53,447 bases of DNA from contig JASHPN010000208.1 of NCBI GenBank assembly GCA_030038175.1, forward strand, positions 1-53,447, in the 5' to 3' direction. Below are positions 3,845 through 53,361 of the stretch, one piece after another (position 1 is the first letter of the stretch; every line of letters begins with the position of its first letter). The DNA comes from Verrucomicrobiia bacterium. GTDB lineage: Bacteria > Verrucomicrobiota > Verrucomicrobiia > Limisphaerales > UBA11358. A program made the translations under genes and the position numbers. Below the pieces are notes generated by a model, which made no database searches, had not been told where the DNA came from, and was given only the letters and a program-made list of their open reading frames with translations.

Positions 3845-6010
3845 ATGCATCGGGTCATTTACTTAATCTTTTTCCTTCCTCTTTCCCTTTTTGCCGCAGA
3901 CTTGACCGGCTCCGGTGGTGACACCAACCTGGACGCCGAACGCACGTGTTTCCAAACCAGCGCGCCTTTCAGCGGTTATGGTGATATTGGCGCAGACGTC
4001 GCGATCGTGTATGGCATCGGGAAAGATCTGCCTGGCCGCGTCCGGGGCTGGCGGCGCCACGGTTATCACGTCCAAATGATGACCGGCTCGGCGTGGGGCG
4101 GATACGGTGATTATTTGGACGGAAAGTGGGATGGCACGAAACACTGGGACGAAGTCCAAACCGACAGCCAGGGCGCTCTTCACAGTCATGGCGGCGATAT
4201 TTATTACATGTGTCCCGGCACGAATTTCGGAAATTACCTGTGCACGGGCATCCAACGCGCGCTGGACGCGAAGGTGGAGGCCATCTACCTGGAAGAACCG
4301 GAATATTGGGTGCAGGACGGCTATTCCGCGGGCTTCAAGCGCGAGTGGAAAAATTTTTATGGCGAGGACTGGCAGGCCCCGGACAGTTCCGTGGACGCGC
4401 AATGGCGGGCGTCCAAACTGAAATATTTTTTGTATCGCCGTTTATTGCAGCAGGTATTTGATTATGTCCGGGCTTACAACCACCGCACCGGCAGCCACGT
4501 GCGATGTTACGTTCCCACTCACAGTTTGCTGAACTATTCGCAATGGCGAATCGTGAGCCCCGAATCAAGCCTGGCGCGATTGAACGGTTGCAATGGCTAT
4601 ATCGCGCAGGTCTGGACTGGAACCTCCCGCACGCCGAACATGTATCATGGAAAACTCAAGGAACGCACGTTCGAGACCGCTTTTCTTGAATATGGCGTCA
4701 TGCAAAACCTGGTGCGTGCCACGGGACGCAGCGTGTGGTATTTAAACGACCCGGTCGAAGACAATCCGAACCACGATTGGCCTGATTATCAGCGCAACTG
4801 GGAATCCACCTTGACCGCGTCGCTCTTTCAGCCGGAGGTATCACGTTACGAAGTGGCGCCCTGGCCGGAACGGGTTTTTGGCCGCAGTTATCCCCGCAGC
4901 GTGGCTCCCGAGGATCGCAAACCGATTCCGCCTGCCTACGCCACGGAACTTCAGGTGGTGTTCAATTCCCTGAAAAACATGAAGCAGGACGATGTCCAAT
5001 GGGATTGCGGCACGCCGGGCCTGGGAGTGTTGGTCAGCGATTCGTTGATGTTTGAACGTGGCGGCCCGTCGCCCAGTGATCCCAACCTTGGCCACATCTA
5101 CGGCATGGCCATGCCGCTTCTGATGCGCGGAATGCCCGTCACGCCCGTTCAGTTGGAAAATGTGGCCATCCCCCATTACCTCGACCCGTTTCACGTTTTG
5201 TTTCTGACCTACGACGGGATGAAGCCTCTCAGTCCTGAACCCCATGCGGCGCTGGCGGATTGGGTGCGGCAGGGCGGCGCCCTCGTCGTCTGTGATGACG
5301 ATGCGGATCCATTTGATTCGGTCCGTGAATGGTGGAATGGCAACGGATTGCATTTCCAGACGCCCCGGGAGGATTTGTTTGAAAGACTTGGATTCAATCC
5401 ACGGGCGGCTAATGGAGCGACGCCGTTGATTGCAAGGGTGGGAGAGGGGACCGTGATGTGGTTGCGCGAAAATCCCGCGCAAATGGCAAATACTCCCAAC
5501 GGCGATTCAGAATTTATCGAATTAGCCAAACAGGCGGCATCCGAGGCGCACATGGAATGGGATGAAAAGAACTACCTGATGCTTCGTCGCGGACCCTATA
5601 TTGTCGCCGCGGGATTGGATGATTCCATCGGCGGCGCGCCAAGGGTTTTGCGGGGACATTTTGTGAATCTTTTTGATTCCGAACTGAAGGTCCGGAATCA
5701 GATCGCGATTTCTCCCGGCTCGCGTTTCTATCTCCTGGACCTGGACCGCGTCTCAAGCGATGCGCCGCGCGTCCTCGCCTCCGCCTGTCGAGTGATACCG
5801 ATCACTCGGAACCCGAAAAAATTTTCAATGTTCGTCGAAGGCGTTACCAACACGCCTGCGATTGTTTTAGTGAAGTCGGATACGGCGCCGCGATCGGTTA
5901 AACTGGGTGGCAAAAAGATCGCCACTTTCAAATATTCGGCGGACGATCAGTTGCTCTGGATTCAATTTGAGAACAATGCGGAGCGAAGGAAGCTTTCGAT
6001 TGTTTTTTAG
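3845..6010 (+). CDS. Secreted glycoside-hydrolase-like protein with GH42-type trimerisation (GATase-like) domain; family unassigned
   Basis: Signal peptide (MHRVIYLIFFLPLSLFA), aromatic/acidic N-terminal region (AIYLEEPEYW), central LADWVRQGGALVV segment; 721 aa. Confidence 0.75.
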   Translation: MHRVIYLIFFLPLSLFAADLTGSGGDTNLDAERTCFQTSAPFSGYGDIGADVAIVYGIGKDLPGRVRGWRRHGYHVQMMTGSAWGGYGDYLDGKWDGTKHWDEVQTDSQGALHSHGGDIYYMCPGTNFGNYLCTGIQRALDAKVEAIYLEEPEYWVQDGYSAGFKREWKNFYGEDWQAPDSSVDAQWRASKLKYFLYRRLLQQVFDYVRAYNHRTGSHVRCYVPTHSLLNYSQWRIVSPESSLARLNGCNGYIAQVWTGTSRTPNMYHGKLKERTFETAFLEYGVMQNLVRATGRSVWYLNDPVEDNPNHDWPDYQRNWESTLTASLFQPEVSRYEVAPWPERVFGRSYPRSVAPEDRKPIPPAYATELQVVFNSLKNMKQDDVQWDCGTPGLGVLVSDSLMFERGGPSPSDPNLGHIYGMAMPLLMRGMPVTPVQLENVAIPHYLDPFHVLFLTYDGMKPLSPEPHAALADWVRQGGALVVCDDDADPFDSVREWWNGNGLHFQTPREDLFERLGFNPRAANGATPLIARVGEGTVMWLRENPAQMANTPNGDSEFIELAKQAASEAHMEWDEKNYLMLRRGPYIVAAGLDDSIGGAPRVLRGHFVNLFDSELKVRNQIAISPGSRFYLLDLDRVSSDAPRVLASACRVIPITRNPKKFSMFVEGVTNTPAIVLVKSDTAPRSVKLGGKKIATFKYSADDQLLWIQFENNAERRKLSIVF

Positions 6011-22826: not shown

Positions 22827-23381
22827 TCACAGTGTGTGGGCTAAAATGACCTCGGCGGCTTCCAACAGGTTTTTGGCGGTAAAATCAGGCTTTTGCTTCA
22901 GTTCTTCCGAGTAGCCGCGATCAATGAAAATGGTTTTGCAACCGGCTGCGTGCCCGCAATCCACGTCCCGCCAGCGGTCGCCGACCATCCAGCACCGGCC
23001 CAAATCCGCATGAAGATCGTGAGCGGCGCGAAGCAACATGCCCGGCCGGGGCTTGCGGCAATCGCATTCGGATTGGCCCTTTCCGGGATGATAGCACACT
23101 TCGACGCGGTCAATGGGAAGCCGGGACAACATATGCGCGTGGATGCGTTCGACATCAGCCCGGTCGAGCGTGCCGCGCCCAACGTCGGGCTGGTTGGTCG
23201 CCACGACCAGGAGAAAGCCGGCGGCTTTCAATTTGGCGCAGGCGGCCGGGACCTCGGGCAGGATTTCAAATTCGACAATGGTTCCAGGCGGATAAGGTTT
23301 GCCCTCGCGTTCAACGGCGCGGTTGATGACGCCATCGCGATCGAGAAACACGATGCGGACGGATTGGGCATTCACAGGCAC
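22827..23381 (-). CDS. gmhB: D-glycero-D-manno-heptose-1,7-bisphosphate phosphatase (HAD IIIA)
   Basis: FLDRDGVIN, ATNQPD, CDCRKPRPGML, WMVGDRWRD. Confidence 0.9.
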   Translation of the reverse strand: MPVNAQSVRIVFLDRDGVINRAVEREGKPYPPGTIVEFEILPEVPAACAKLKAAGFLLVVATNQPDVGRGTLDRADVERIHAHMLSRLPIDRVEVCYHPGKGQSECDCRKPRPGMLLRAAHDLHADLGRCWMVGDRWRDVDCGHAAGCKTIFIDRGYSEELKQKPDFTAKNLLEAAEVILAHTL

Positions 23382-23582
23382 AGGTCAGGGGACAAAAACG
23401 GCGGGCTGGCGAAGACACACGTTTCACATCGCCAACACCGCCGAAGCGCCCAGTTCTCATTGGGCGGCTTTATTTTACCCCCAAAATGGGCGGGTGCAAA
23501 ACGATTTTTGGAAAATTTTTTTACCCCGGGTTCTCTTCTCTCTGCTCTTTACTTTCAATGCAAAAGGCTGGAAAAATGGCGT

Positions 23583-26420
23583 ATGTTAATTCGCCGGGGC
23601 TTGCCCTTTGCGTGGCTCTTGCTCTGCTTTTTCCCGCTTTTCACGATGGCGGCGGCGCTTTCGGATTCGCCGTTCCTTGTGGATTCCTGGACCGTTGAGG
23701 ATGGGTTGCCCGATAGCGAAGCCGTTTCGGTCCTGCAGGCCCGGGACGGCTATCTTTGGATTGGCACCCTTCACGGACTCGTTCGCTTCGACGGAAACCA
23801 ATTTAAGGTCTTCGACGAGATGGATACTCCCGGCTTGAAGAGCGACCGCATTGTGTTCCTCTATGAAGACAGCCATACCAATCTTTGGATTGGCACCCAG
23901 TCCGCCGGGCTGGCCGTGATCCATGACGGGCAAATCAAGAGTTTCCAGGCCGAAACTTCCGCCGCCGGCGCGATCACGTGTGCCAGCGAAAATTCCGGAG
24001 ACATTTTGTTTTATTCGGATAATGGATTTGCCAATTATCACCAGGGCCACATGACCTATTACCCGGGAGTCCGGTCCCTGGAATTGTATCTCAAGGCGAT
24101 GCATCTGATTGTCCCTGCCAAAGACGGGGGCGTTTGGCGGCTGTGGAACGGGGCCATTCAGGAATGGAATGGCGATCACTGCGAAAAAAATCTCGGCGCC
24201 TGCCCGTGGGGCAATACTTTCGTCAAAGCCGTTTGCGAAGATGAAAAGGGAAACCTGATTGTGGGCACCCTCGGCAAGGGCATTTTTTGGTTTGATGCCG
24301 ATGGAAACTACCGGCATATCTCCAAAACGAACGGCTTGTCCTCGGATTTCGTTCTTTCTCTGTGCGTTGATGATGACGGAAATCTTTGGGCGGGCACGGA
24401 TGGGGCGGGTTTGGACCGCGTCAAGAGGAAAGCATTCAGCACTCTTCCCGGGCTGCGTCCCTGGCCGGTCACCTCGATCGCGCAGGACGCTTCGGGCGGC
24501 GTATGGGCGGCGTTCACTGCCGCCGGCCTGTCCTATTGGAACTCGAATGCCGTTCGCGATTTTGGCGTGGGCCAGGTGTCGGATGCCTCGGCCGTGCTGG
24601 TGGACCAAAAACAAAATGTTTGGGCAGGCACCAGCAGTGAGGGGCTCTTTCGATTTCAAACCAATCGTTTTGTGCCTGTCTTCGCCGCGCGGACTGACAT
24701 TCCCGCTCTTTTTGAAAGCCGCGACGGACGGCTTTGGGCCGGAACTCAAAACGGCCTGGGTTGCTGGGATGGCAGGAGCTGGAGACTCTACACCACCCGC
24801 GATGGTTTGTCCGGAAACGCCGTCAGCGCCATCGCCGAAGATTCCCGCGGCAACCTGTGGGTTGGAACCGAAGACAGCGGCCTGGATTACTTCGACGGCC
24901 AAAAATTCATTTCCTGTCGGGCCTCCGCCAATGGCTTGCCCGGCAACGATATTTCATGCCTGTACGTGGATCACGACGGCGTTTTATGGGTGGGCACCTC
25001 CGCTCACGGTCTCGCGCGCTTCAAGAACGGCCAATGGACTCCGTTGTCAGAACGCGACGGCCTGGCCAGCAACAGCATCGGTTACATCATCGGCGACGAC
25101 GAGGGGGATCTGTGGATCGGTTGCAATGCCGGCCTGATGCGGATTTCAAAGGAATCGCTCGCCGGTCTCGTGGAGGAAACGAACTTATTCTGCCGCGTCT
25201 ATGGAAAGGCCGACGGTATGCCGACGCGCGAATGTTCCAGCGGCTCGCAACCGGCCGCCATCCGCGCGCACGATGGCCGGCTCTGGTTTCCGACGAGCGA
25301 GGGCCTGGTGATCATAGACCCCTCGAAATTGGCGCTGAACCGCCCTCCTCCGAAGATCCTCATTGAATCTGTGCTGGTGGACGGGCAGGAGCAAAATACC
25401 AATCCATTAAATTCCGCCTGGAGCGCCAGTGTCACAGTCCCGCCCGGGGGCGAACAACTGGAAATCCATTACACCGCCCTCAATTTTTCCGCGCCGCAGG
25501 CCGTTCATTTCAAATACCGTCTGGAGGGGCATGAGAATGCCTGGACCGACGCCGGCGATGGCCGCGTGGCCCGCTATCCGGCACTGCCGCCGGGCCATTA
25601 TCAATTTCACGTTATCGCCTGCAACGAAGACGGCATCTGGAACAATGAAGGCGCCGTCCTGGCGGTAGTCGTGCAGCCCCAATTCTGGCAGACGGCCACG
25701 TTTCAGATTGTGGTCATTCTCGTTTTGCTTGGTTTGATCGTCGGTATCGTCAGGTATGTTTCGACTCAAAAATTGCATCGCCAGGTCCAGCGCCTCAAAC
25801 AACAGGAAGCGCTCGAGCGCGAACGCGCGCGGATCGCCCGCGATCTTCATGACCAGCTCGGCGCCAATCTCACGCAGGTGGCGTTGCTCGGAGAGATGGC
25901 CGAGGCGGACAAAAATCTGCCGGATGAAGTCGAAGCGCACACGCGGCAAATTTCCCAGACGGCGCGGGAAACGACGCGTTCACTCGATGAAATTGTCTGG
26001 GCGATTAATCCGTCCAATGACACGCTGGAAGGCCTGGCCAATTATGTGTGCAAATATGCGCAGGAATATTTCGCCCTCGCAAATTTGCCTTGCCGCGTGG
26101 ATTTTCCGGCGCAATTGCCCGCCGCGCCCATTCCGCCGGAAGTGCGCCACAATGTGTTTCTGGCCTTTAAGGAGGCAGTCAATAACGTGGTCAAGCACGC
26201 GCAGGCAAGCCAGGCTGGGGTTCGACTCCAATTGCAACCGGATCATTTCATTCTTCAGATCGAGGACAACGGCCGCGGCCTGGACAAAGACTTCGAAGCC
26301 AAAAACCGGAATGGCGTGCGCAATATGAAAAAGCGCATGGAGGATATTGGGGGCGATTTCTCCATTTCACCCGGCGCGAATGGCGGAACGGTTATTCAAC
26401 TGACAGTGCCGCTTAAATGA
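23583..26420 (+). CDS. Sensor histidine kinase with two-component-regulator beta-propellers, Y_Y_Y domain and HisKA_3/HATPase
   Basis: Signal peptide, repeated LW(I/V)GT propeller motifs, FKYRLEG, TM helix, RIARDLHDQLGA H-box, IEDNGRG; ATG 23583 chosen within ORF 22893..26420. Confidence 0.93.
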   Translation: MLIRRGLPFAWLLLCFFPLFTMAAALSDSPFLVDSWTVEDGLPDSEAVSVLQARDGYLWIGTLHGLVRFDGNQFKVFDEMDTPGLKSDRIVFLYEDSHTNLWIGTQSAGLAVIHDGQIKSFQAETSAAGAITCASENSGDILFYSDNGFANYHQGHMTYYPGVRSLELYLKAMHLIVPAKDGGVWRLWNGAIQEWNGDHCEKNLGACPWGNTFVKAVCEDEKGNLIVGTLGKGIFWFDADGNYRHISKTNGLSSDFVLSLCVDDDGNLWAGTDGAGLDRVKRKAFSTLPGLRPWPVTSIAQDASGGVWAAFTAAGLSYWNSNAVRDFGVGQVSDASAVLVDQKQNVWAGTSSEGLFRFQTNRFVPVFAARTDIPALFESRDGRLWAGTQNGLGCWDGRSWRLYTTRDGLSGNAVSAIAEDSRGNLWVGTEDSGLDYFDGQKFISCRASANGLPGNDISCLYVDHDGVLWVGTSAHGLARFKNGQWTPLSERDGLASNSIGYIIGDDEGDLWIGCNAGLMRISKESLAGLVEETNLFCRVYGKADGMPTRECSSGSQPAAIRAHDGRLWFPTSEGLVIIDPSKLALNRPPPKILIESVLVDGQEQNTNPLNSAWSASVTVPPGGEQLEIHYTALNFSAPQAVHFKYRLEGHENAWTDAGDGRVARYPALPPGHYQFHVIACNEDGIWNNEGAVLAVVVQPQFWQTATFQIVVILVLLGLIVGIVRYVSTQKLHRQVQRLKQQEALERERARIARDLHDQLGANLTQVALLGEMAEADKNLPDEVEAHTRQISQTARETTRSLDEIVWAINPSNDTLEGLANYVCKYAQEYFALANLPCRVDFPAQLPAAPIPPEVRHNVFLAFKEAVNNVVKHAQASQAGVRLQLQPDHFILQIEDNGRGLDKDFEAKNRNGVRNMKKRMEDIGGDFSISPGANGGTVIQLTVPLK

Positions 26421-26432
26421 TTTTCGCCTGGC

Positions 26433-26591
26433 GGAGCGCGGCTGCCCGCCCTTCCGCAGCCTTTGGCGAAGGAGGGTGTGCGATAGCATCAGCCGCCGCG
26501 GCCCGACAAGCCCTAGACCACCGTGCTTTGTGCAAGCATCCGGGCCGTGCGCGCTGCGACTGATCCCGCAGACGGGATGCAGTCGCGCTCC
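26433..26591. repeat. REP-like element family B
   Basis: GGAGCGCGGCTGCCCGCCCTTCCG...CGCAGACGGGATGCAGTCGCGCTCC; similar to 30124-30282. Confidence 0.75.
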
Positions 26592-26669
26592 GGCGTTGCA
26601 TCCGTCCGTAAAACGTAATTCGTAAATTTCCTTTTTCCTTTTTCCTTTTTCCTTTTTAATTCTCCACGG

Positions 26670-27293
26670 ATGGCCACTACCGTTTCCATCGTCGAAGACA
26701 ACGAAAAGCTGCGCGGCACGCTGGCCCGGGTCCTCAATCGCGCCGAAGGCTTCCGTTGTGTCAGCCAATATCCGAGCGCGGAAGAGGCGCTCAAGGACCT
26801 GCCTTCGGTCAAACCGAACGTGGTGCTGATGGACATCAATTTGCCCGGCATCAACGGCGTCGAATGCGTCCGCCAGTTGAAAAAGAATTTGCCCGAGGTC
26901 CAGGTCATGATGCTGACCGTTTATGAGGACACGGACAATATCTTCGATGCGCTCGCCGCCGGCGCCAGCGGATACCTGCTCAAACGGACGACCGGGGCGG
27001 AACTGCTCGAAGCCATTCGCGACGTTCAGCGCGGCGGCTCGCCCATGACCGCGCATATCGCGCGCAAAGTCGTGCAATCGTTCCAAAAAAATGCTCCGGC
27101 CCAGCCCGCCGAAAACCTGTCCGAGCGCGAACAACAGGTGCTCGACCTGCTGAGCAAGGGACTGATGTACAAGGAAATCGCCGACAAACTCCAAATCAGT
27201 TACGAAACAGTTCACACCTACATCCGGCGCATCTATGAAAAGCTGCGCGTCCGCACGCGCACCGAAGCCGTCGCAAAATTTTTGAGGCAATAG
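26670..27293 (+). CDS. NarL/LuxR-family response regulator
   Basis: REC domain (IVEDN, LMDINLPG, GYLLK) plus LSEREQQVL...YKEIADKL HTH. Confidence 0.96.
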   Translation: MATTVSIVEDNEKLRGTLARVLNRAEGFRCVSQYPSAEEALKDLPSVKPNVVLMDINLPGINGVECVRQLKKNLPEVQVMMLTVYEDTDNIFDALAAGASGYLLKRTTGAELLEAIRDVQRGGSPMTAHIARKVVQSFQKNAPAQPAENLSEREQQVLDLLSKGLMYKEIADKLQISYETVHTYIRRIYEKLRVRTRTEAVAKFLRQ

Positions 27294-27597: not shown

Positions 27598-27822
27598 ATG
27601 AAAACGCTTAAAGCAGTAGAGTTGACCGATCCGAATTTACGGGCCATGCCCAAGGGCCTGAGGCAAATGTTTTTGGTCTCGGTAAAATTTTTTACCAGAA
27701 AGGACAAGGCAACGGCTAAAGCCGAAGGGCAAAACGCCGATAAAGGTAATCCGGGAAAGACTGCCGCAAATCGGTCGCGGGCGTTTCAGTGGGATTACTG
27801 GTTGAATAGACCCGGTCAATAG
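27598..27822 (+). CDS. Small hypothetical protein, paralog A (74 aa)
   Basis: Purine-rich RBS; shares PxxRxxPKGLxQ and SRAFxWDYW with 27907..28152. Confidence 0.7.
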   Translation: MKTLKAVELTDPNLRAMPKGLRQMFLVSVKFFTRKDKATAKAEGQNADKGNPGKTAANRSRAFQWDYWLNRPGQ

Positions 27823-27906: not shown

Positions 27907-28152
27907 ATGTTCAAGTCAATCGTATGCACGTATCCGGACTTCCGGATGTTGCCAAAAGGTCTCAAGCAATTGCTTGTGGCCTCGGAGAATTTATTTTTCA
28001 GCGAGAGCAAGGGCGCGGCGCCAGGAACGAATGAGCGAAAAGCCGGCGGCGTCCGGTTATGGCAGGCGCCCAAGGGGCCGTTTTTTAACAGGCGCCGGGA
28101 AGAACAGCCGGCGCCGTCGCGCGCATTTCGATGGGATTATTGGTCGGAGTGA
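27907..28152 (+). CDS. Small hypothetical protein, paralog B (81 aa)
   Basis: Paralogy with 27598..27822 at both termini. Confidence 0.7.
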   Translation: MFKSIVCTYPDFRMLPKGLKQLLVASENLFFSESKGAAPGTNERKAGGVRLWQAPKGPFFNRRREEQPAPSRAFRWDYWSE

Positions 28153-28261: not shown

Positions 28262-29701
28262 TCACTGCGCGGGCATTCCGGGAAAGCCGGGTTGGGTTGA
28301 TTTCGTCCGTACAATTCGATGAATGCTTTGAAGCCTTTGCGCAACCCGCCCGAGTTGTGGCGTCACAAATACCAGGAGGGTTTTGGCATCGGCCTCTTCA
28401 TTTCCGGCAACAGCCGACTGGATCAACAACGTTTGACCGGGATCCAGTCCGAGTGTCGCGGTAATCGCCGCCTTGGTCGTTCCGGGTCCCTGCGAAGCAT
28501 CCGCGAGCCGGTTCCATTGCGCCACCAGATCAAGACTGACCGATTTGGAATCCGGAGAAAGTGAAGCCGATACGTCCAGGGTGGTCCCAAGGTACGCGTT
28601 AGTTCCCGCGATTTTGACGGGCTGCGTCAGGGAAACCATTCCCTGGGCTGTTTTCGACAGGCCTGAAACGAACGCAATTCGCGGCTTGCCCAGAACCTTT
28701 GCCTCCGCGTTCTGTTTGAGAGCCGCCAGGATACTTGTGTATGCCGACTCGGAAAGTATGGCCGTCTTCGCATTCGCATCTGCCGGTTCTTGAGGAACAT
28801 TCAAGCTGTCCAAAAAATGGTTGGGGACCTCGACAAATTCCGTGCCAATTAAAAGCGCCTTTACCGAACGCGCCCGTCCCGGTGCAGACGCCACATCCGC
28901 CCGATGCATGTGAACTTCGTAGAGTGTGACGGTTGCCGTTGCGGCGACCAGTAGTATTGCGACACTCGTTGCCACCGCGGTCTGTATTTTGGTCCATGCC
29001 ATAATTTTCAATGCTCCTTTCATGAGGGTTAAGGTTGCTGTCGAAGCCGCCGCGCCCTTCGCCACTGCTACGGCCGAAATCGTCTTTGCCAGTCCGGCCG
29101 GCGCGGCCTGGACTGAGTTGGACGAAATGGCGCCGGCGATAATTGCGGTCGTCGAAGCCACGCCGCGCTTTGTGAAAAATTTTCGCAGTTTTTCCAACGC
29201 GCGGCCAAGGCGCTGCTGCGCGGTGTTTTCTTTGAGGCCCAAAACGCGTCCCACCTCGGCCACGCTCTTGTTCTGGAAATAACGCAACACGAGCGCATCC
29301 CGTTCGCTGCCACCCAGGGACGCCATCGCGTCTTCCAGATGCGGGGCCAATTCCGGCCAGAGAGGATCGGTGGCGGGTTCTTCGAGTGTGGATTGCATGG
29401 AGGCCTCCTGTTCGCGGCGGATCCGTCGCGCGTCCGCCCGTTGAAAATTTGCCGCGGTCAACCGCGCCGTCTGGTAAAGCCATCCGGCCAGCACCCTTTT
29501 TTGTCCAAAGCCTCCCGCCTTGCGGGCCAAAATAATGAACACCGCCTGCGTGATGTCCTGGGCGTGCTGTGGATTAGCGGTCCGGCGCAGCGCGACCGAA
29601 TGGACCAGGCCGACATACCGTTCCACCAGCGCGGCAAACGCGTCCTCGGATTGATTCCGGGTAAATTGCTCCAGCAACTCGGTGTCAGGCAAATCGGTCA
29701 T
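28262..29701 (-). CDS. ECF sigma-70 factor with TM helix and C-terminal secretin-like domain
   Basis: Sigma regions 2 and 4 ([31 protein letters not shown]), TM ATSVAILLVAATATVTLY, then secretin-like KVLGKPRI...GTTLDVSA...GQTLLI...LLVFVTPQL. Confidence 0.88.
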   Translation of the reverse strand: MTDLPDTELLEQFTRNQSEDAFAALVERYVGLVHSVALRRTANPQHAQDITQAVFIILARKAGGFGQKRVLAGWLYQTARLTAANFQRADARRIRREQEASMQSTLEEPATDPLWPELAPHLEDAMASLGGSERDALVLRYFQNKSVAEVGRVLGLKENTAQQRLGRALEKLRKFFTKRGVASTTAIIAGAISSNSVQAAPAGLAKTISAVAVAKGAAASTATLTLMKGALKIMAWTKIQTAVATSVAILLVAATATVTLYEVHMHRADVASAPGRARSVKALLIGTEFVEVPNHFLDSLNVPQEPADANAKTAILSESAYTSILAALKQNAEAKVLGKPRIAFVSGLSKTAQGMVSLTQPVKIAGTNAYLGTTLDVSASLSPDSKSVSLDLVAQWNRLADASQGPGTTKAAITATLGLDPGQTLLIQSAVAGNEEADAKTLLVFVTPQLGRVAQRLQSIHRIVRTKSTQPGFPGMPAQ

Positions 29702-29709
29702 TTACCGAT

Positions 29710-29738
29710 TATATGTGCGCCGGCTGAAAAACCTGACA
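29710..29738 (-). promoter_or_regulatory. Conserved promoter motif of extended ECF genes, copy 1
   Basis: TGTCAGGTTTTTCAGCCGGCGCACATATA, 8 nt before ATG. Confidence 0.65.
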
Positions 29739-30123
29739 ATGTATTTTTGGCGTGGTGCGTGTGGCGTGGTGCGCCAAGTATCCGGGATGAATCACGAAAT
29801 ACACAGCGCGGACAGCTTTGTCCGCCAAAAATGACGCAAGCAGGGAACACGCGGACAAAGCTGTCCGCGCTCCTCGGAGTTGGCCGCAGGACGACACACA
29901 TTTCATTTGTGTATAGGCCGTGAACGGAGTAAACGAACGACCCGACAGCATCGAAAAGCATGATTTTATTTGGTTTTTGAACGTTTTTTTACCAGGTGCG
30001 GGTGTGAACGAAGAGGAGAGGCGCAGGCAAAGGGAATGGCTGATGGAAGGTTGAAGAGGGTCAGAGCGACTGGCCGCCGGGCGTGCTGCGACTCGCTTTC
30101 AGCAGAGTCGCGCTAGTCCGTCC

Positions 30124-30288: not shown

Positions 30289-31746
30289 CTACGGCGTGAA
30301 ATCAGAGGGTGAATATGTGTGATTGATGACAATGTTTTCGTGGGTTTGCACGGACTTGACGTCGCCGGATACTGTGTGCGGGGCATTCCGCAGTTCTGGA
30401 TTCTTTTTTGCTTCCGCGTCGAGCATGGCATTCAACGCTTTCGCCGTTGTGTCATTTTCGATTTGACGGACCAAAAAATCCCGCTTGCCAATCCATATGG
30501 TTTGGGTGCGTCCGCCGCCGGATTGGGTCAGGACGTAACAATCAATGCCGCCCACGGCAGCATCCGGTTCTCGGCTGGGCGAATGCATATTAATGTTACC
30601 CCAATTCTGTTTGAAGAAAGTCCCGGGAATGCTGCCTGCGGCGCCGCCGGAAATCCCAGTTGCGCCACCTAATGAGCCTTCCATGTTCGGCTCCCGCTCC
30701 GGACTGGATTCGGAAGTCATTTTCAAAAAATTTCCGCTGCCGGCCGACCAAACCATTCCCGTTTGGACAAAGAATCCATAGTCTTGCTGCCATTCAATGC
30801 GGTAAAGATTCGGGCGCGCTAATTTGGTGGAATAAGTAATCGGCGGCACGGTTTTAGTCCCGACTGTGCCGGTTGATGTGCCCGTGTCGCTGTAGCTGGT
30901 CAGCGCAGCGTAGGCGTTGTGCAATCGCTGGAGAATTTGCCGCGCGGTGAGGCCGTCATCGTCGTTCCCTTTCGAAACGGCGACCGTTGCCACGCCCGCC
31001 GCGAGGATGATGCCGGCCGTGACGCCGAGTGCGAATTTGAGCTTTAACCAGGTCATTGTTTTCATAGTTCCTTTTACGATCGTTATTATGGTTGTGGACG
31101 CGGCAGCCCCTTTCGCCACTGCCACGGTTGAAATCGTCTTTGCCAGTCCCGCGGGCGCGGCCTGGACTGAATTGGCCGAAATGGCGCCGGCGATAATTGC
31201 AGTCGTCGAAGCCACGCCGCGTTTTGAGAAAAATTTCCGGAGCTTTTCCAGCGCCCGGCCCACGCGTTTTTTTGCCGCTTCTTCGTTCAGCCGCATCACC
31301 TGCCCAATTTCCTGCGACGTTTTGTTCTCGAAATAGCGCAGAGCAATCACGTTGCGATCGGCGTCGCCAAGCGAGGCCATGGCTTCGTCCAGCAATGGGG
31401 CGAGTTCATCCCAGGCTTCGGGCGAAGATTCATTGAGTTGCATGGCTGCCTCCTGTTCGCGCCGGGACCGGCGCATCCCGGCGCGGATTTGCGCGTTGGC
31501 CGCGTAGCGCGTCGCTTTCAGCAGCCAGCCGGACAGGATGGTGTCCGCGGACAGTCTGGCCGCCTTGCGGGCGAGGATGATAAAAACCGCCTGTGTCACA
31601 TCCTGCGCCAGATGCGGGTCACGCAATTGGCGCAGTGCCGCGGAATAAACGAGGCCGACATACCGTTCCACCAGCGCCGCAAAGGCGGTCTCCGACTGCT
31701 GCTGCGCATATTCGCGCAATAATGTGATGTCCTGCATTTCTGACAT
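30289..31746 (-). CDS. ECF sigma-70 factor with TM helix and LolA/DUF2092-like C-terminal domain
   Basis: Sigma core paralogous to 28262..29701; [20 protein letters not shown]; C-terminal LTSYSDTG...[12 protein letters not shown]...[12 protein letters not shown]. Confidence 0.88.
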
Positions 31747-48795: not shown

Positions 48796-49323
48796 AATTC
48801 AGGAATGGGCGTTGTGTTTTTTTGATTTTGGCGTCCTTTGGCATTCTTTCAAGTTCAATTTTCGATCGTCGAAAGCACGGATTAAGACAACGCGGTTGGA
48901 GGACGGAGCGCGGATGCGTGCGAGAGCCCCAGCCGCAGCACGTGGCCAGCCGGAGATATTGCGTATGGCGACGAATCATCGCGTTGCGGACGTGCGGCGA
49001 CGGCAGCAGCACGACGAAGCCTGAATGGCAGGAGTCCTGGCTCGTTTAATTCGATTACGAAGACGAGGACAATTAAGGTTTACCGGGGGCGTTCACCCTT
49101 TTAGCCAGAGCTTCCTGACGTCAGCTCCTACGCAATTAGGAACGCAAGCGTGGTGGCGAAGGTTCATAGTGCCGATGCAAGGTGGCTGGATGTTCGATGT
49201 TCAACAGGTTAAAAAGATTTTTTGCAAGATCCCGGAGTGGGCGCCGTAGGGGTCAATGAACGTGGAAAAACGCTTGTTTTTTCTTCACTGGGAAATAGGT
49301 TAAATAACGAAAAGGCGGATAAG

Positions 49324-50088
49324 ATGAAAAATAGCTCGAACAGAAACGGTTTTACGCTCATTGAATTGCTGGTGGTGATCGCGATTATTGCGATTTTGGC
49401 CGCGGTCCTCCTGCCGGTGCTGGACATGGCCAAACGAAAGGCCTGGGAGATCAGTTGTCTCGACAACCACAAGCAATTGGCCACGGCCTGGATCATGTAT
49501 AAAAACGATAACAACGGCAATTTGGCCATTGACGACCCCGTGACGGGGGCGACGCTGGCCGGAACGAATTATCCGAGCTGGGTCTATGGCAATATGCAGA
49601 CATCCGATGCAACGAACACCTCATTGATTCAAATGGGCCTGCTTTTTCCCGATGGCGCCAACGTTGGCATTTATCATTGTCCCGCTGACCAGGACACGGC
49701 CCATCACGACCGCAGTTACAGCATGCAACCGCAACTGGCCCTATATAATAACGGTGCGCCAGTCCCGGTGGACACCAGCTATCCACCCATGTACACGGAA
49801 AACCAAATCCGGATTGTCCCGCCGTGTTCAACCGTTCTTTTTTTGGATGAAAGTTCCGTGACCATCAATGACGGCTTTTTTGCCCTGGACATTACCTCCG
49901 GCCAATGGGAATCCGATCTTCCGGCCTATTGGCACGGGAATGGCGATAATTTATCGTTCGCCGACGGCCACGCGGAGCATTGGCGCTGGCTGGACCCACG
50001 GACGTCTTCGCCTAATCCAAATTCCGGCAGCGCGCCATATCCCGATCTGGCGCGGCTCGAAGCGGATTTCGGGTATCAATCGCCGTAA
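49324..50088 (+). CDS. Prepilin-type N-terminal cleavage/methylation protein with H-X9-DG domain
   Basis: [19 protein letters not shown]; [14 protein letters not shown]. Confidence 0.93.
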
Positions 50089-51221: not shown

Positions 51222-53033
51222 TCATTGTTCGATGAGTTCGGGCTTGGTCGGATTATCTATGATCTCGTATTTGAGCGAATCCAAATCGAGCCAGACTTTG
51301 CCGCTGCCATGGAAGGCGAAGCCGGTGTCGAGGCATTCGGTGTCTTTGGGAATCCGGCAGGTGATGGTTCGAAGCGTCCAATCGGTTGTTCCGGAAATGG
51401 GGCCGCCGCCAAGCATCTTATCCTGGGCGAGCAATTTGAAATTCGCTCCTTTTGGCCGAAGGTTGGGACGCAAACGGCCGTCCACATTTTCCGTTTTTGT
51501 CCACACGGTCATGCGCACCATGTGACCGGCGTATTTTTCCGGCGTGCGAATGTCCTGTCCCCACCACATCCATGAGCCGGGAGGCGCCTTTCCGAATAGC
51601 GTATATTCAATGCAAAACGCCGAATGGCCGTTGTGCGTGACGGTATCGTCGGTCGTTTCGGAATAATCGTAGGAATCGGGGCTCCATACGTGCCAGGGAC
51701 GATCATCGGTGATGGGTGTTTCGGGCGGAACAACGTCCACTTCAAAATCGTCGAACCAGACCTCGCCGGTGCCGTAAAGGGCGGGCGCAAAGACGATCGC
51801 GCAAGGTTCCTTTGGAACATCGGCGACAAATTCGATCTGCTGCCAATCGGTCGTGCCGCGAATGGGCCGGTCGGTCATGTCGTCGTCGGCAAAAATGTGC
51901 CCGCCTTTATTCACGATTTCCAGCGATGCGCCGGCCCAGGCGGCGACGTCTTTGGTTTTTATCCAGCCGCCGACCTGAACCCGCTTTCCCAGCAGCAAAG
52001 AATTTTTCGGGAGCCAATGAACCGTGTAACGCGACGCTGCAAGCAACCGGTTTTTGCCGGTCGTCGAAGCCAGATATTCAGCGTCGGTGGCCGGCGCGAT
52101 GAGCGATTTGATGTGGATGGCGGGATCGGAATCGGGCGTGCGGCGCATATTCGGGTCCGTATCCATTTCAAACCGGTCGTCGTCCACGCCGTTCCGGAAG
52201 GCGTCATTGGCGAATTTGAGGGGCAGCTTTTCCGGGGGAGGGAGAGGCGGCCCGGAGATTGACTTGAAAATGACAAAGCCGGCGCCGGCGCCAATAATGA
52301 CGGCTACGGCCGTCGCGATAATAATTTTAGTTTTCATGGTGATGAGAGTTGCTTTGGCGATGGTGGTGAGGGGAAGAGAAGCGGTTGCGCCTTTGGCCAG
52401 CGCAAGGGCGGCGGTCGTTTTGATGAGCGCGGCGGGCGCGGGTTGAATTGAATGAATTGAAATGGTTTCGGCAATGGCGGCGGTGGTTGAATCAGCCCCG
52501 CGCTGCAAGAAGATTTGCCGCAATTTTTCCAGCGCGCGATTCACCCGCATTCTGGCGCCGTCTTCATTTGCGCCCAGGGCCGCGCCGACCTGCTTGAAAT
52601 CTTTGCCTTCGAAAAATCGGAGCAGCACGGCATTTCGGTCTTTTTCGCCCAGGCGCAGCATCGCCGAGTCCAGCATCGGCGCGATTTGTTGCCAGGCTTG
52701 AGATTCGAGGGGTTCATTCAGGGTGGATTGCATGTAGGCCTCCTGTTCGCGGCGCTGGCGGCGGCGCTGCATTTTCAACACGTCGGCGCTCACGTATTGC
52801 GCCGTACGATAAAGCCAGCCGGTCAAAATGGTTTCCGCCCCGAGTAATTTTGCTTTACGCGCCAAAAGGATGAAGACCGATTGCGTGACTTCTTCGGCCA
52901 GGTGCGGGTCGCTCGTTTGGCGCAAGGCCACCGAATAAACGAGATGAATGTGCCGCGAAACCAGCGTTTCAAATGCTTTTTCCGACTGGCGGGCGGCGTA
53001 TTCGCGCACCAATTCCATGTCTTCGGCCATCAT
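51222..53033 (-). CDS. ECF sigma-70 factor with TM helix and two tandem CBM-like jellyroll domains
   Basis: Sigma core paralogous to the other two; TM IIIATAVAVIIGAGAGFVIF; two repeats of (I/T)KT..V...PI.GTTDW...P...G.G.VW.D. Confidence 0.88.
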   Translation of the reverse strand: MMAEDMELVREYAARQSEKAFETLVSRHIHLVYSVALRQTSDPHLAEEVTQSVFILLARKAKLLGAETILTGWLYRTAQYVSADVLKMQRRRQRREQEAYMQSTLNEPLESQAWQQIAPMLDSAMLRLGEKDRNAVLLRFFEGKDFKQVGAALGANEDGARMRVNRALEKLRQIFLQRGADSTTAAIAETISIHSIQPAPAALIKTTAALALAKGATASLPLTTIAKATLITMKTKIIIATAVAVIIGAGAGFVIFKSISGPPLPPPEKLPLKFANDAFRNGVDDDRFEMDTDPNMRRTPDSDPAIHIKSLIAPATDAEYLASTTGKNRLLAASRYTVHWLPKNSLLLGKRVQVGGWIKTKDVAAWAGASLEIVNKGGHIFADDDMTDRPIRGTTDWQQIEFVADVPKEPCAIVFAPALYGTGEVWFDDFEVDVVPPETPITDDRPWHVWSPDSYDYSETTDDTVTHNGHSAFCIEYTLFGKAPPGSWMWWGQDIRTPEKYAGHMVRMTVWTKTENVDGRLRPNLRPKGANFKLLAQDKMLGGGPISGTTDWTLRTITCRIPKDTECLDTGFAFHGSGKVWLDLDSLKYEIIDNPTKPELIEQ

Positions 53034-53042
53034 CTTTATCAA

Positions 53043-53071
53043 TACATGGACGCCGTCGCGAAAAGCGAACA
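53043..53071 (-). promoter_or_regulatory. Conserved promoter motif of extended ECF genes, copy 3
   Basis: TGTTCGCTTTTCGCGACGGCGTCCATGTA, 9 nt before ATG. Confidence 0.65.
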
Positions 53072-53361
53072 TTTTTGTCGAAGCCAGGGCAGGGGGGAAA
53101 TGAGGGATGAATGTAGGGAAAAGACATCGGGCAACCTTGCAATCTGACCGGATTTAGGCTAAAAAACAGGCTATGGGGGACACCTCCGCCGATTTCCGGA
53201 ATAGGGCAGTGTCCTGAATTGATGCTTTTGGAGCGCAACTGGGTCATGGAACATCAATCGTGGCCGCTGCGGCTGGTCTCCCGACAGATCGGGAGACACA
53301 GCCGCGCTCCGACCGAAACAGGACACCGCCCGGGATAGTGGTTCCTTCACGAAAATATAAT

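Follow-up and report, generated by a model that had tools for sequence, protein, structure and literature searches.

The Verrucomicrobiia bacterium represented by assembly GCA_030038175.1 (order Limisphaerales, UBA11358) encodes, on contig JASHPN010000208.1, a protein that combines a transcription factor with a reduced version of the secretin pore domain. We analyzed the whole 53,447-nucleotide stretch of this contig (hereafter the window) and focused on gene P0001 (positions 28262 to 29701, minus strand), the product of which joins an extracytoplasmic function (ECF) sigma factor, through an Ala-rich linker and one transmembrane (TM) helix, to a C-terminal domain (C-domain) that is very probably derived from the secretins and very probably not a pore. 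[quoted passage not shown] The source genome is a 5.4-Mb metagenome-assembled genome in 431 contigs with a completeness of ~92%, and the P0001 sequence was found in peat metagenomes.

Architecture of P0001 and origin of its C-domain

P0001 is a single intact open reading frame (ORF) of 479 amino acids (aa) with an ATG start. Its parts are as follows:

28262..29701, minus strand: whole P0001 gene, intact ORF (ECF sigma factor, linker, TM helix, and secretin-derived domain)
29426..29629, minus strand: Sigma-70 region 2 (residues 25 to 92; PF04542)
29180..29338, minus strand: Sigma-70 region 4 (residues 122 to 174; PF04545, PF08281)
28979..29170, minus strand: Ala/Ser/Thr-rich linker (residues ~178 to 241), common to 19 paralogs and predicted to be cytoplasmic
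28919..28975, minus strand: single TM helix (residues 243 to 261), the only segment with a mean hydropathy above 1.6
28337..28870, minus strand: compact secretin-homology beta domain (residues ~278 to 455), predicted to be periplasmic (profile, HHalign, AlphaFold2 [AF2], and Foldseek)
28265..28336, minus strand: C-terminal tail (residues 456 to 479), modeled with lower confidence

Both conserved sigma regions were recognized by Pfam, region 2 at residues 25 to 92 (Sigma70_r2, PF04542; 41.7 bits, E = 1e-10) and region 4 at residues 125 to 174 (Sigma70_r4; PF04545, 42 bits; PF08281, 40.7 bits). The NCBIfam model TIGR02937 scored 89.4 bits against a cut-off of 42.9, and the sigma core resembled solved SigE and SigW structures (E = 3e-11 to 3e-9). 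With sigma2 and sigma4 both above curated thresholds, P0001 is, by these profile matches, a bona fide ECF (group 4) sigma-70 factor. The linker that follows, which ends in the consensus KGAAAS..TLTLxKGALKIMAWTK, had no Pfam or NCBIfam match at residues 178 to 241. Its 19-residue Kyte-Doolittle (KD) means did not exceed 1.08, and it is therefore not a TM segment; the possibility that it forms additional TM helices, which would flip the topology, was rejected on this basis. The only region of P0001 with 19-residue windows above 1.6 was the TM helix itself (residues 243 to 261; KD = 1.94), preceded on its N-terminal (cytoplasmic) side by lysines K228, K232, and K238. Based on hydrophobicity and on the requirement that the sigma core be cytoplasmic, the core and linker are predicted to lie in the cytoplasm and the C-terminal ~218 residues outside. 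No anti-sigma domain (FecR-type or zinc-binding ZAS) was detected with Pfam or NCBIfam between sigma4 and the TM helix, and P0001 contains zero cysteines, leaving none for a zinc site. The protein ends in a tail without regular predicted structure (residues 456 to 479; pLDDT ~70 to 73), which includes an RLQxI motif partly conserved among close relatives.

The C-domain is beta-rich and ~180 aa long. The four motifs in which the sequence-only reading had recognized a secretin pattern (KVLGKPRI, GTTLDVSA, GQTLLI, and LLVFVTP) are all present in P0001 in this order, and all four map to conserved columns of a 58-sequence family alignment headed by P0001's own sequence (the alignment and its profile are called A4 below). 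A word-indexed search for homologues recovered just two relatives sharing the P0001 architecture; an exhaustive profile search with the C-domain alone recovered 82 cluster representatives. The Pfam Secretin profile (PF00263) was matched by 65 of these 82 relatives at E ≤ 0.01 (best E = 1.5e-24). P0001 itself aligned over residues 327 to 427 with positions 1 to 119 of the 169-position profile (18.6 bits, E = 0.0015), and three other sigma fusions passed the PF00263 cut-off (P0016, 28.4 bits; P0024, 29.8 bits; L012, 33.3 bits).

Comparison at the level of the family gave far stronger matches. The A4 profile matched 21 solved secretins in the Protein Data Bank (PDB) with E values of 5e-18 to 1e-4, comprising GspD/ExeD/EpsD, PilQ, RcpA, f1 pIV, InvG, and MxiD, and no non-secretin family fell below E = 0.1 in this search. 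Alignment by HHalign with three genuine secretins of the same genome extended over 144 columns (probability 98.9%, E = 2.2e-17). An AF2 model of the domain, built on A4, consisted of long paired strands and one helix (mean pLDDT = 87.9, pTM = 0.79); when this model was compared with the PDB by Foldseek, the top 23 matches were all secretins, the top nine with a probability of 1.00. These comparisons confirmed, for the family as a whole, a resemblance to secretins far beyond chance.

The composition proposed by the sequence-only reading thus held up in each part: sigma core (Sigma70_r2/r4 and TIGR02937), one TM helix (KD = 1.94), and a C-terminal domain recognized by the family secretin profile. 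That reading had also named what would speak against it, a C terminus without a secretin beta-fold; profile, HHalign, and Foldseek matches were all to secretins, so that the reading was not refuted, with the caveat that the global TM-scores were just 0.27 to 0.37.

Departure from the secretin channel and distribution of the module

Three deletions distinguish the C-domain from secretin pores. They were placed by alignment with GspD and the secretins of this genome and interpreted with the map of f1 pIV, in which the lip comprises residues 199 to 234 (36 aa), Gate 1 comprises residues 267 to 297 and pivots on Gly267 and Gly297, and Gate 2 extends from Asp321 to Asn335 (PMC8563730). The lip equivalent in the family is 22 residues long, compared with 36 in phage secretins and 51 to 60 in type II secretins. 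The Gate 1 equivalent is 13 residues long, compared with 30 in pIV, and has a conserved Thr at the position of the Gly267 hinge. The AHL (amphipathic helical loop), which is a secretin signature required for membrane insertion, sits between two membrane strands, beside the lip (PMC6532946, PMC8134430). We infer that the AHL of the literature is the VPxLGDIP motif, because position and conservation agree. No member of the family (0 of 58) has a motif of this type (VPxLGDIPxLGxLF) between the last two outer-wall strands; when GspD and the secretins of this genome are aligned with the family profile, the corresponding segment is an insertion in them. As a control, P0075, a BlaR1 fusion with a full secretin domain, carries an AHL-type segment, PVLGDIPVLGRLF.

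P0001 also lacks the parts that precede the pore domain in secretins. It has no signal peptide, no N0 to N3 domains, and no S-domain, and its N terminus is the sigma core. As the sequence-only reading had noted, N-domains are missing: Pfam detected no Secretin_N or N0 match in P0001, and the first strand of the C-domain follows the TM helix after only ~17 residues. The three true secretins of the genome, by comparison, score 143 to 169 bits on PF00263 and possess Secretin_N/N0 domains. What P0001 shares with secretins (GspD/ExeD/EpsD, PilQ, RcpA, InvG, and f1 pIV) is a homologous, collinear beta domain, from the helix that opens the Pfam domain through the strands of the inner and outer walls to the GQT...LLVFVTP end; what sets it apart is the missing signal peptide, N0 to N3, S-domain, and AHL, together with a shortened Gate 1 and lip. 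The word "secretin" in the sequence-only reading therefore needs a qualification: it applies to the homologous beta domain, from which the membrane-insertion and gating parts that define the channel have been lost. By alignment, the module is homologous to secretins yet fails most of the features defining a secretin channel. Given the loss of the N-domains, the AHL, about half of Gate 1, and much of the lip, together with the ~17-residue tether, we reasoned that the C-domain cannot be an outer-membrane channel; the short tether in itself argues against an outer-membrane location. Its most likely role is that of a sensor or of a module for protein interaction.

The N-terminal module of P0001 (sigma core, linker motif, and TM helix) is a chassis shared by ~19 paralogs in the genome, with lengths of 373 to 749 aa. 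Across the ten paralogs scanned, the outer domains comprised DUF3738, redoxin/thioredoxin, Laminin_G_3, CarboxypepD_reg, and TPR-like domains as well as several without assignment; DUF3738 occurs in at least one of the ten and is recurrent among the fusions in arrays of other genomes. P0001 alone among the chassis paralogs of the genome has a secretin-type module. Further members in the window are as follows:

30289..31746, minus strand: paralog P0002 (485 aa), with the same sigma-linker-TM chassis and an unrelated C-domain without Pfam match
51222..53072, minus strand: third chassis paralog, a 616-aa frame with its true start probably near 53034 (Sigma70_r2/r4; N-module hidden Markov model [HMM], 285 bits)

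P0001 and P0002 are ~93% identical in the DNA for the end of sigma4 and for the linker, synonymous sites included (29050 to 29210 versus 31100 to 31260, both minus strand), compared with ~65% for the rest of their shared N-terminal half. This difference suggests gene conversion or a recombination hotspot in the linker, directly upstream of the exchangeable sensor domain.

Among the 82 C-domain relatives, ~31 to 33 are sigma fusions, at least six are BlaR1-type M56 proteases, and the others are stand-alone or truncated copies. The P0001 architecture is retained, with intact frames, in ~31 to 33 clusters at 50% identity, and close orthologues of P0001 are few. In NCBI, the sigma fusions are named just [quoted passage not shown]. 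The compact AHL-less module is also carried by the BlaR1 fusions P0044, P0048, P0049, and P0064, which are intermixed with sigma fusions in the domain tree. In this FastTree phylogeny, for which branch supports and rooting were not assessed, AHL-less sigma-fused and short forms cluster together, AHL-bearing BlaR1 forms make up a separate clade that also includes AHL-less BlaR1 fusions and a few sigma fusions, and the ordinary secretins of the genome fall outside. Because the module is found on BlaR1-type M56 proteases, and because the sigma chassis carries many other periplasmic domains, we regard the module as an exchangeable input domain.

BlaR1-M56/secretin fusions of 880 to 1,300 aa were present in nearly every genome sampled of the order (L034 to L037; P0044, P0048, P0049, P0064, and P0075). 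Some copies have a full secretin domain with AHL plus ExbD-like or SLBB domains, and others are compact and AHL-less. Profile matches of ~950 aa were considered as canonical PilQ/GspD and rejected, as Pfam identified them as BlaR1-M56 fusions. Like P0001, these proteins combine an inner-membrane signaling chassis with a C-terminal secretin-homology module; they differ in their output, which in place of a sigma factor is a zinc protease whose presumed target is a BlaI-type repressor. Some of them (P0075 and L037) retain a full, AHL-containing secretin domain and have long spacers, which could allow them to reach the outer membrane. Since A4 also detects ordinary secretins and BlaR1-secretin fusions, its matches in 120 of 121 genomes of the order are not a figure for the distribution of sigma fusions.

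A family promoter motif and its genomic context

P0001 is preceded by a promoter-like motif shared with its paralogs, in which TTGTC lies 38 nucleotides (nt) ahead of the ATG and a TATAAT-like box ends 6 nt ahead of it. The order of elements in the family is A-rich, TTGTC, T-rich, GGCG, and CATATA-like (pattern AAAAA..TTGTC..TTTT.C..T.GG..G......A), and the motif occurs ahead of at least 14 paralogs, with TTGTC at a fixed distance of 37 to 39 nt from the ATG in the sigma-fusion paralogs. The copies ahead of sigma fusions in the window are as follows:

29706..29749, minus strand: CAAAAATACATTGTCAGGTTTTTCAGCCGGCGCACATATAATCG, before P0001
31747..31794, minus strand: copy before P0002 (41.9 bits)
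~53035..53082, minus strand: copy before the third paralog at 51222..53072 (24.2 bits)

Further copies were found on four contigs of the same genome (C397, C246, C394, and C369). Given that the TATAAT-like box ends only 6 to 7 nt before the start codon, the sigma-fusion mRNAs are probably leaderless.

We scanned the genome with a weight matrix trained on this genome's sites only. This yielded 22 sites of at least 24 bits, 15 of them ahead of sigma fusions. Three of the seven other sites precede pilin-like genes with prepilin-type N termini, and one precedes a 543-aa protein with the same juxtamembrane/TM motif and a zinc-ribbon replacing the sigma core. With 77 pilin-like ORFs in the genome, three sites ahead of such genes represent an enrichment, in small numbers. 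In loci of four other genomes, the same matrix marked every sigma-fusion gene as well as the intergenic regions ahead of pilin-like genes that follow tandem arrays (L030/L033, 25.8 bits; L032, 29.8 bits). Because ECF sigma factors commonly autoregulate (PMC7826278), the motif is a reasonable candidate for the target promoter of the sigma fusions, with pilin-like genes among the outputs.

In other Verrucomicrobiae, the secretin-type sigma fusion is part of tandem arrays of three to five paralogs of DUF3738, unknown, and secretin types (L030, 854 to 11820; L033; L032, 4414 to 9843). In these arrays, each gene has its own motif copy, and one or two pilin-like (N_methyl/DUF1559) genes follow.

The pilin-like gene that the sequence-only reading had placed in the same window was recovered as an N_methyl gene at 49222 to 50088, and the family motif is absent from it. 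The association with pilin-like genes is a property of the whole sigma-fusion family, not of the secretin-type member specifically. Pilin and secretion genes are absent from the surroundings of orthologue L028, and a GspE-type ATPase is located 4.5 kb from one of the orthologues.

Other genes of the window were also inspected. Two paralogous small genes (27598 to 27822 and 27907 to 28152, both plus strand), coding for 74 and 81 aa, point toward the 3' end of P0001, and each is preceded by a sigmaE-like promoter, TGAAC...GCGTCTAA. These promoters (genes at 27598 and 27907) were considered as P0001 targets and rejected, as TGAAC...GCGTCTAA differs from the family motif. The region directly downstream of the twin genes (22893 to 27293, plus strand) codes for a LuxR-type response regulator and a large hybrid histidine kinase (Reg_prop/Y_Y_Y, HisKA_3); no connection with P0001 was established. 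The gene of a secreted-looking protein of 721 aa without Pfam match (3845 to 6010, plus strand) has a weak motif copy (19.2 bits), correctly spaced relative to its ATG.

Signaling model, competing explanations, and significance

The explanation that we favor, with moderate confidence when proteolytic release is included, is that of an inner-membrane ECF sigma factor with a secretin-derived periplasmic sensor. P0001 would be a single-pass, inner-membrane-anchored protein for one-component envelope signaling in an uncultured peat Verrucomicrobium, with the sigma2-sigma4 core and Ala-rich linker in the cytoplasm and the ~180-residue two-layer beta domain in the periplasm. A periplasmic cue near the inner membrane would act on the secretin-derived domain and trigger cleavage first at site 1 and next at site 2 (by an RseP-type protease), on the pattern of IutY or SCO4117. 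The freed sigma core would transcribe from the family promoter (A-rich, TTGTC, T-rich, GGCG, CATATA), and its targets would include its own gene, the paralogs, and some pilin-like genes.

We infer release by proteolysis from analogy with two fusions. IutY of Pseudomonas putida, a sigma/anti-sigma hybrid of group ECF243, is activated by Prc and RseP cleavage, and for SCO4117 of Streptomyces coelicolor (ECF52) a model in which the protein is processed by proteolysis is supported by truncation data (PMC8999054). Like P0001, both combine in one chain an N-terminal ECF sigma core, a TM segment, and an extracytoplasmic C-terminal sensor domain, and with these precedents the one-component envelope-sensor architecture advanced in the sequence-only reading fits the data (PMC8999054). 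IutY differs in having a FecR-type anti-sigma and periplasmic part and a TonB-dependent transducer as partner, whereas P0001 has no recognizable anti-sigma domain; in SCO4117 the anti-sigma part is a zinc finger and the chain also carries a carbohydrate-binding domain, whereas P0001 has no cysteines. P0001 differs from both in its distinct conserved Ala-rich linker and its secretin-derived outer domain. ECF57 is, like P0001, an ECF sigma factor of the Planctomycetes-Verrucomicrobia-Chlamydiae (PVC) superphylum with a long C-terminal extension; it is a planctomycetal group, characterized by WD40-like repeats and by two conserved cysteines through which sigma2 and sigma4 are linked (PMC8999054). 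The suggestion that P0001 is ECF57-like was abandoned, since P0001 has neither a WD40 match nor cysteines and is set apart by these published traits (PMC8999054).

Several observations count against the favored explanation. P0001 taken alone scores below the PF00263 gathering score (18.6 versus 27.5 bits). Foldseek TM-scores normalized by the query (TMq) were just 0.27 to 0.37, with root mean square deviations (rmsd) of 14 to 24 Å, and the monomer model does not superpose globally on secretin protomers extracted from rings; the agreement is therefore one of local fold and strand order, not of global superposition. The trimmed C-domain may form rings. No recognizable anti-sigma domain or zinc site is present to hold a tethered sigma factor inactive. 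Although an RseP-type M50 protease (165.8 bits) and proteases of family S41 are encoded in the genome, such enzymes are near-universal and their presence is uninformative, M50 having been found in 14 of 14 control genomes. The family motif may be inherited with each gene duplicate and not be the sigma factor's own target. Finally, the P0001 gene was seen only in DNA runs from peat metagenomes; RNA runs containing it were sought and none was found.

The alternative that the C-domain is an unrelated beta-rich domain with a chance resemblance to secretins is extremely improbable. It can draw on the low score of P0001 by itself against PF00263 (18.6 bits, E = 0.0015) and on TM-scores to solved secretins below 0.4, but it is contradicted by a profile-to-PDB comparison that matched secretins exclusively (E = 5e-18), by the HHalign result (98.9%), by PF00263 matches in 65 of 82 relatives, and by the collinear order of the motifs. 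The family profile, HHalign, and the relatives' matches effectively refute chance similarity. It is also very unlikely that the fusion is functionless or decaying, its C-domain being a fragment of a secretin gene captured by a recombination-prone sigma chassis and devoid of a sensing role. The chassis does swap C-domains readily, the linker bears signs of gene conversion, and close orthologues of P0001 are few; however, ~31 to 33 clusters at 50% identity keep the architecture with intact frames, core motifs are strongly conserved in the domain alignment, the AF2 model is confident, and the same trimmed module is retained on a second signaling chassis, BlaR1. A regulator that is permanently tethered to the membrane and never cleaved, either working as a membrane-bound sigma factor (ToxR/CadC-type) or having its stability or oligomeric state controlled by the periplasmic domain, is an unlikely alternative. 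The lack of an anti-sigma domain between sigma4 and the TM helix would suit such a regulator, as would a promoter geometry that predicts leaderless transcripts and tight local autoregulation, and the ~65-residue linker could give an RNA polymerase-bound sigma factor some reach. Sigma fusions with experimental data nevertheless point to proteolytic release (directly for IutY, by truncation for SCO4117; PMC8999054), and tying a sigma factor to the membrane would require that RNA polymerase and a number of dispersed promoters be brought there.

A further possibility, which we consider unlikely, is that the domain is a decoy or reporter protomer. Here the trimmed domain would keep secretin-type edge-strand contacts, and the sigma factor would report the assembly state of the machine and adjust the expression of pilin-like genes; the domain might form its own ring at the inner membrane or dock or co-assemble with a secretin, a BlaR1-secretin fusion, or a (pseudo)pilus. 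Strands of both walls of the secretin barrel are kept and the loops alone are trimmed, the genome has three genuine secretins, BlaR1-secretin fusions occur in almost all relatives of the order, sigma-fusion arrays are followed by pilin-like genes with the family promoter motif, and one orthologue has a GspE-type ATPase at a distance of 4.5 kb. [quoted passage not shown] For the proposal of the sequence-only reading that P0001 could read the state of secretin or pilus assembly, the evidence is indirect and consists in the association of the family's motif and gene arrays with pilin-like genes; this association is not specific to the secretin type, and the pilin-like gene of the window lacks the motif. 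In its most explicit and likewise unlikely form, the trimmed domain would retain its protomer interfaces and act as a decoy protomer or (pseudo)pilin receptor at the inner membrane; a disturbance of pseudopilus or secretin assembly would engage or free the domain and lead to cutting of the tether, and the released sigma factor would switch on itself, its paralogs, and a set of PVC pilin-like genes. If true, this would be a hard-wired feedback loop from a secretion or pilus machine to transcription, built from the machine's own pore domain, with a parallel, protease-output version in the BlaR1-secretin fusions that these bacteria also possess.

Under the favored explanation, an inner-membrane sigma factor with a secretin-derived periplasmic sensor, a protein that once formed pores appears to have been put to new use in sensing at the envelope. 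To our knowledge, secretins are known only as outer-membrane channels. Neither combination, secretin with ECF or secretin with BlaR1, was described in the literature searched, and secretin is not mentioned in the ECF reclassification paper; P0001 is a known signaling design with an input domain not found in the literature searched. A secretin beta domain without the insertion loop, most of the lip, and half of the gate serves as the outward module of two inner-membrane chassis in many Verrucomicrobia, and it would represent (i) a new class of input domain for ECF one-component signaling, which public annotation misses, and (ii) a natural minimal secretin core in which the barrel walls can be studied without AHL, lip, and gate. 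PVC bacteria have very large, unexplained sets of pilin-like proteins, and the ~19 chassis paralogs per genome, the family promoter, and the link to pilin-like genes would together offer a testable entry into how these proteins are regulated.

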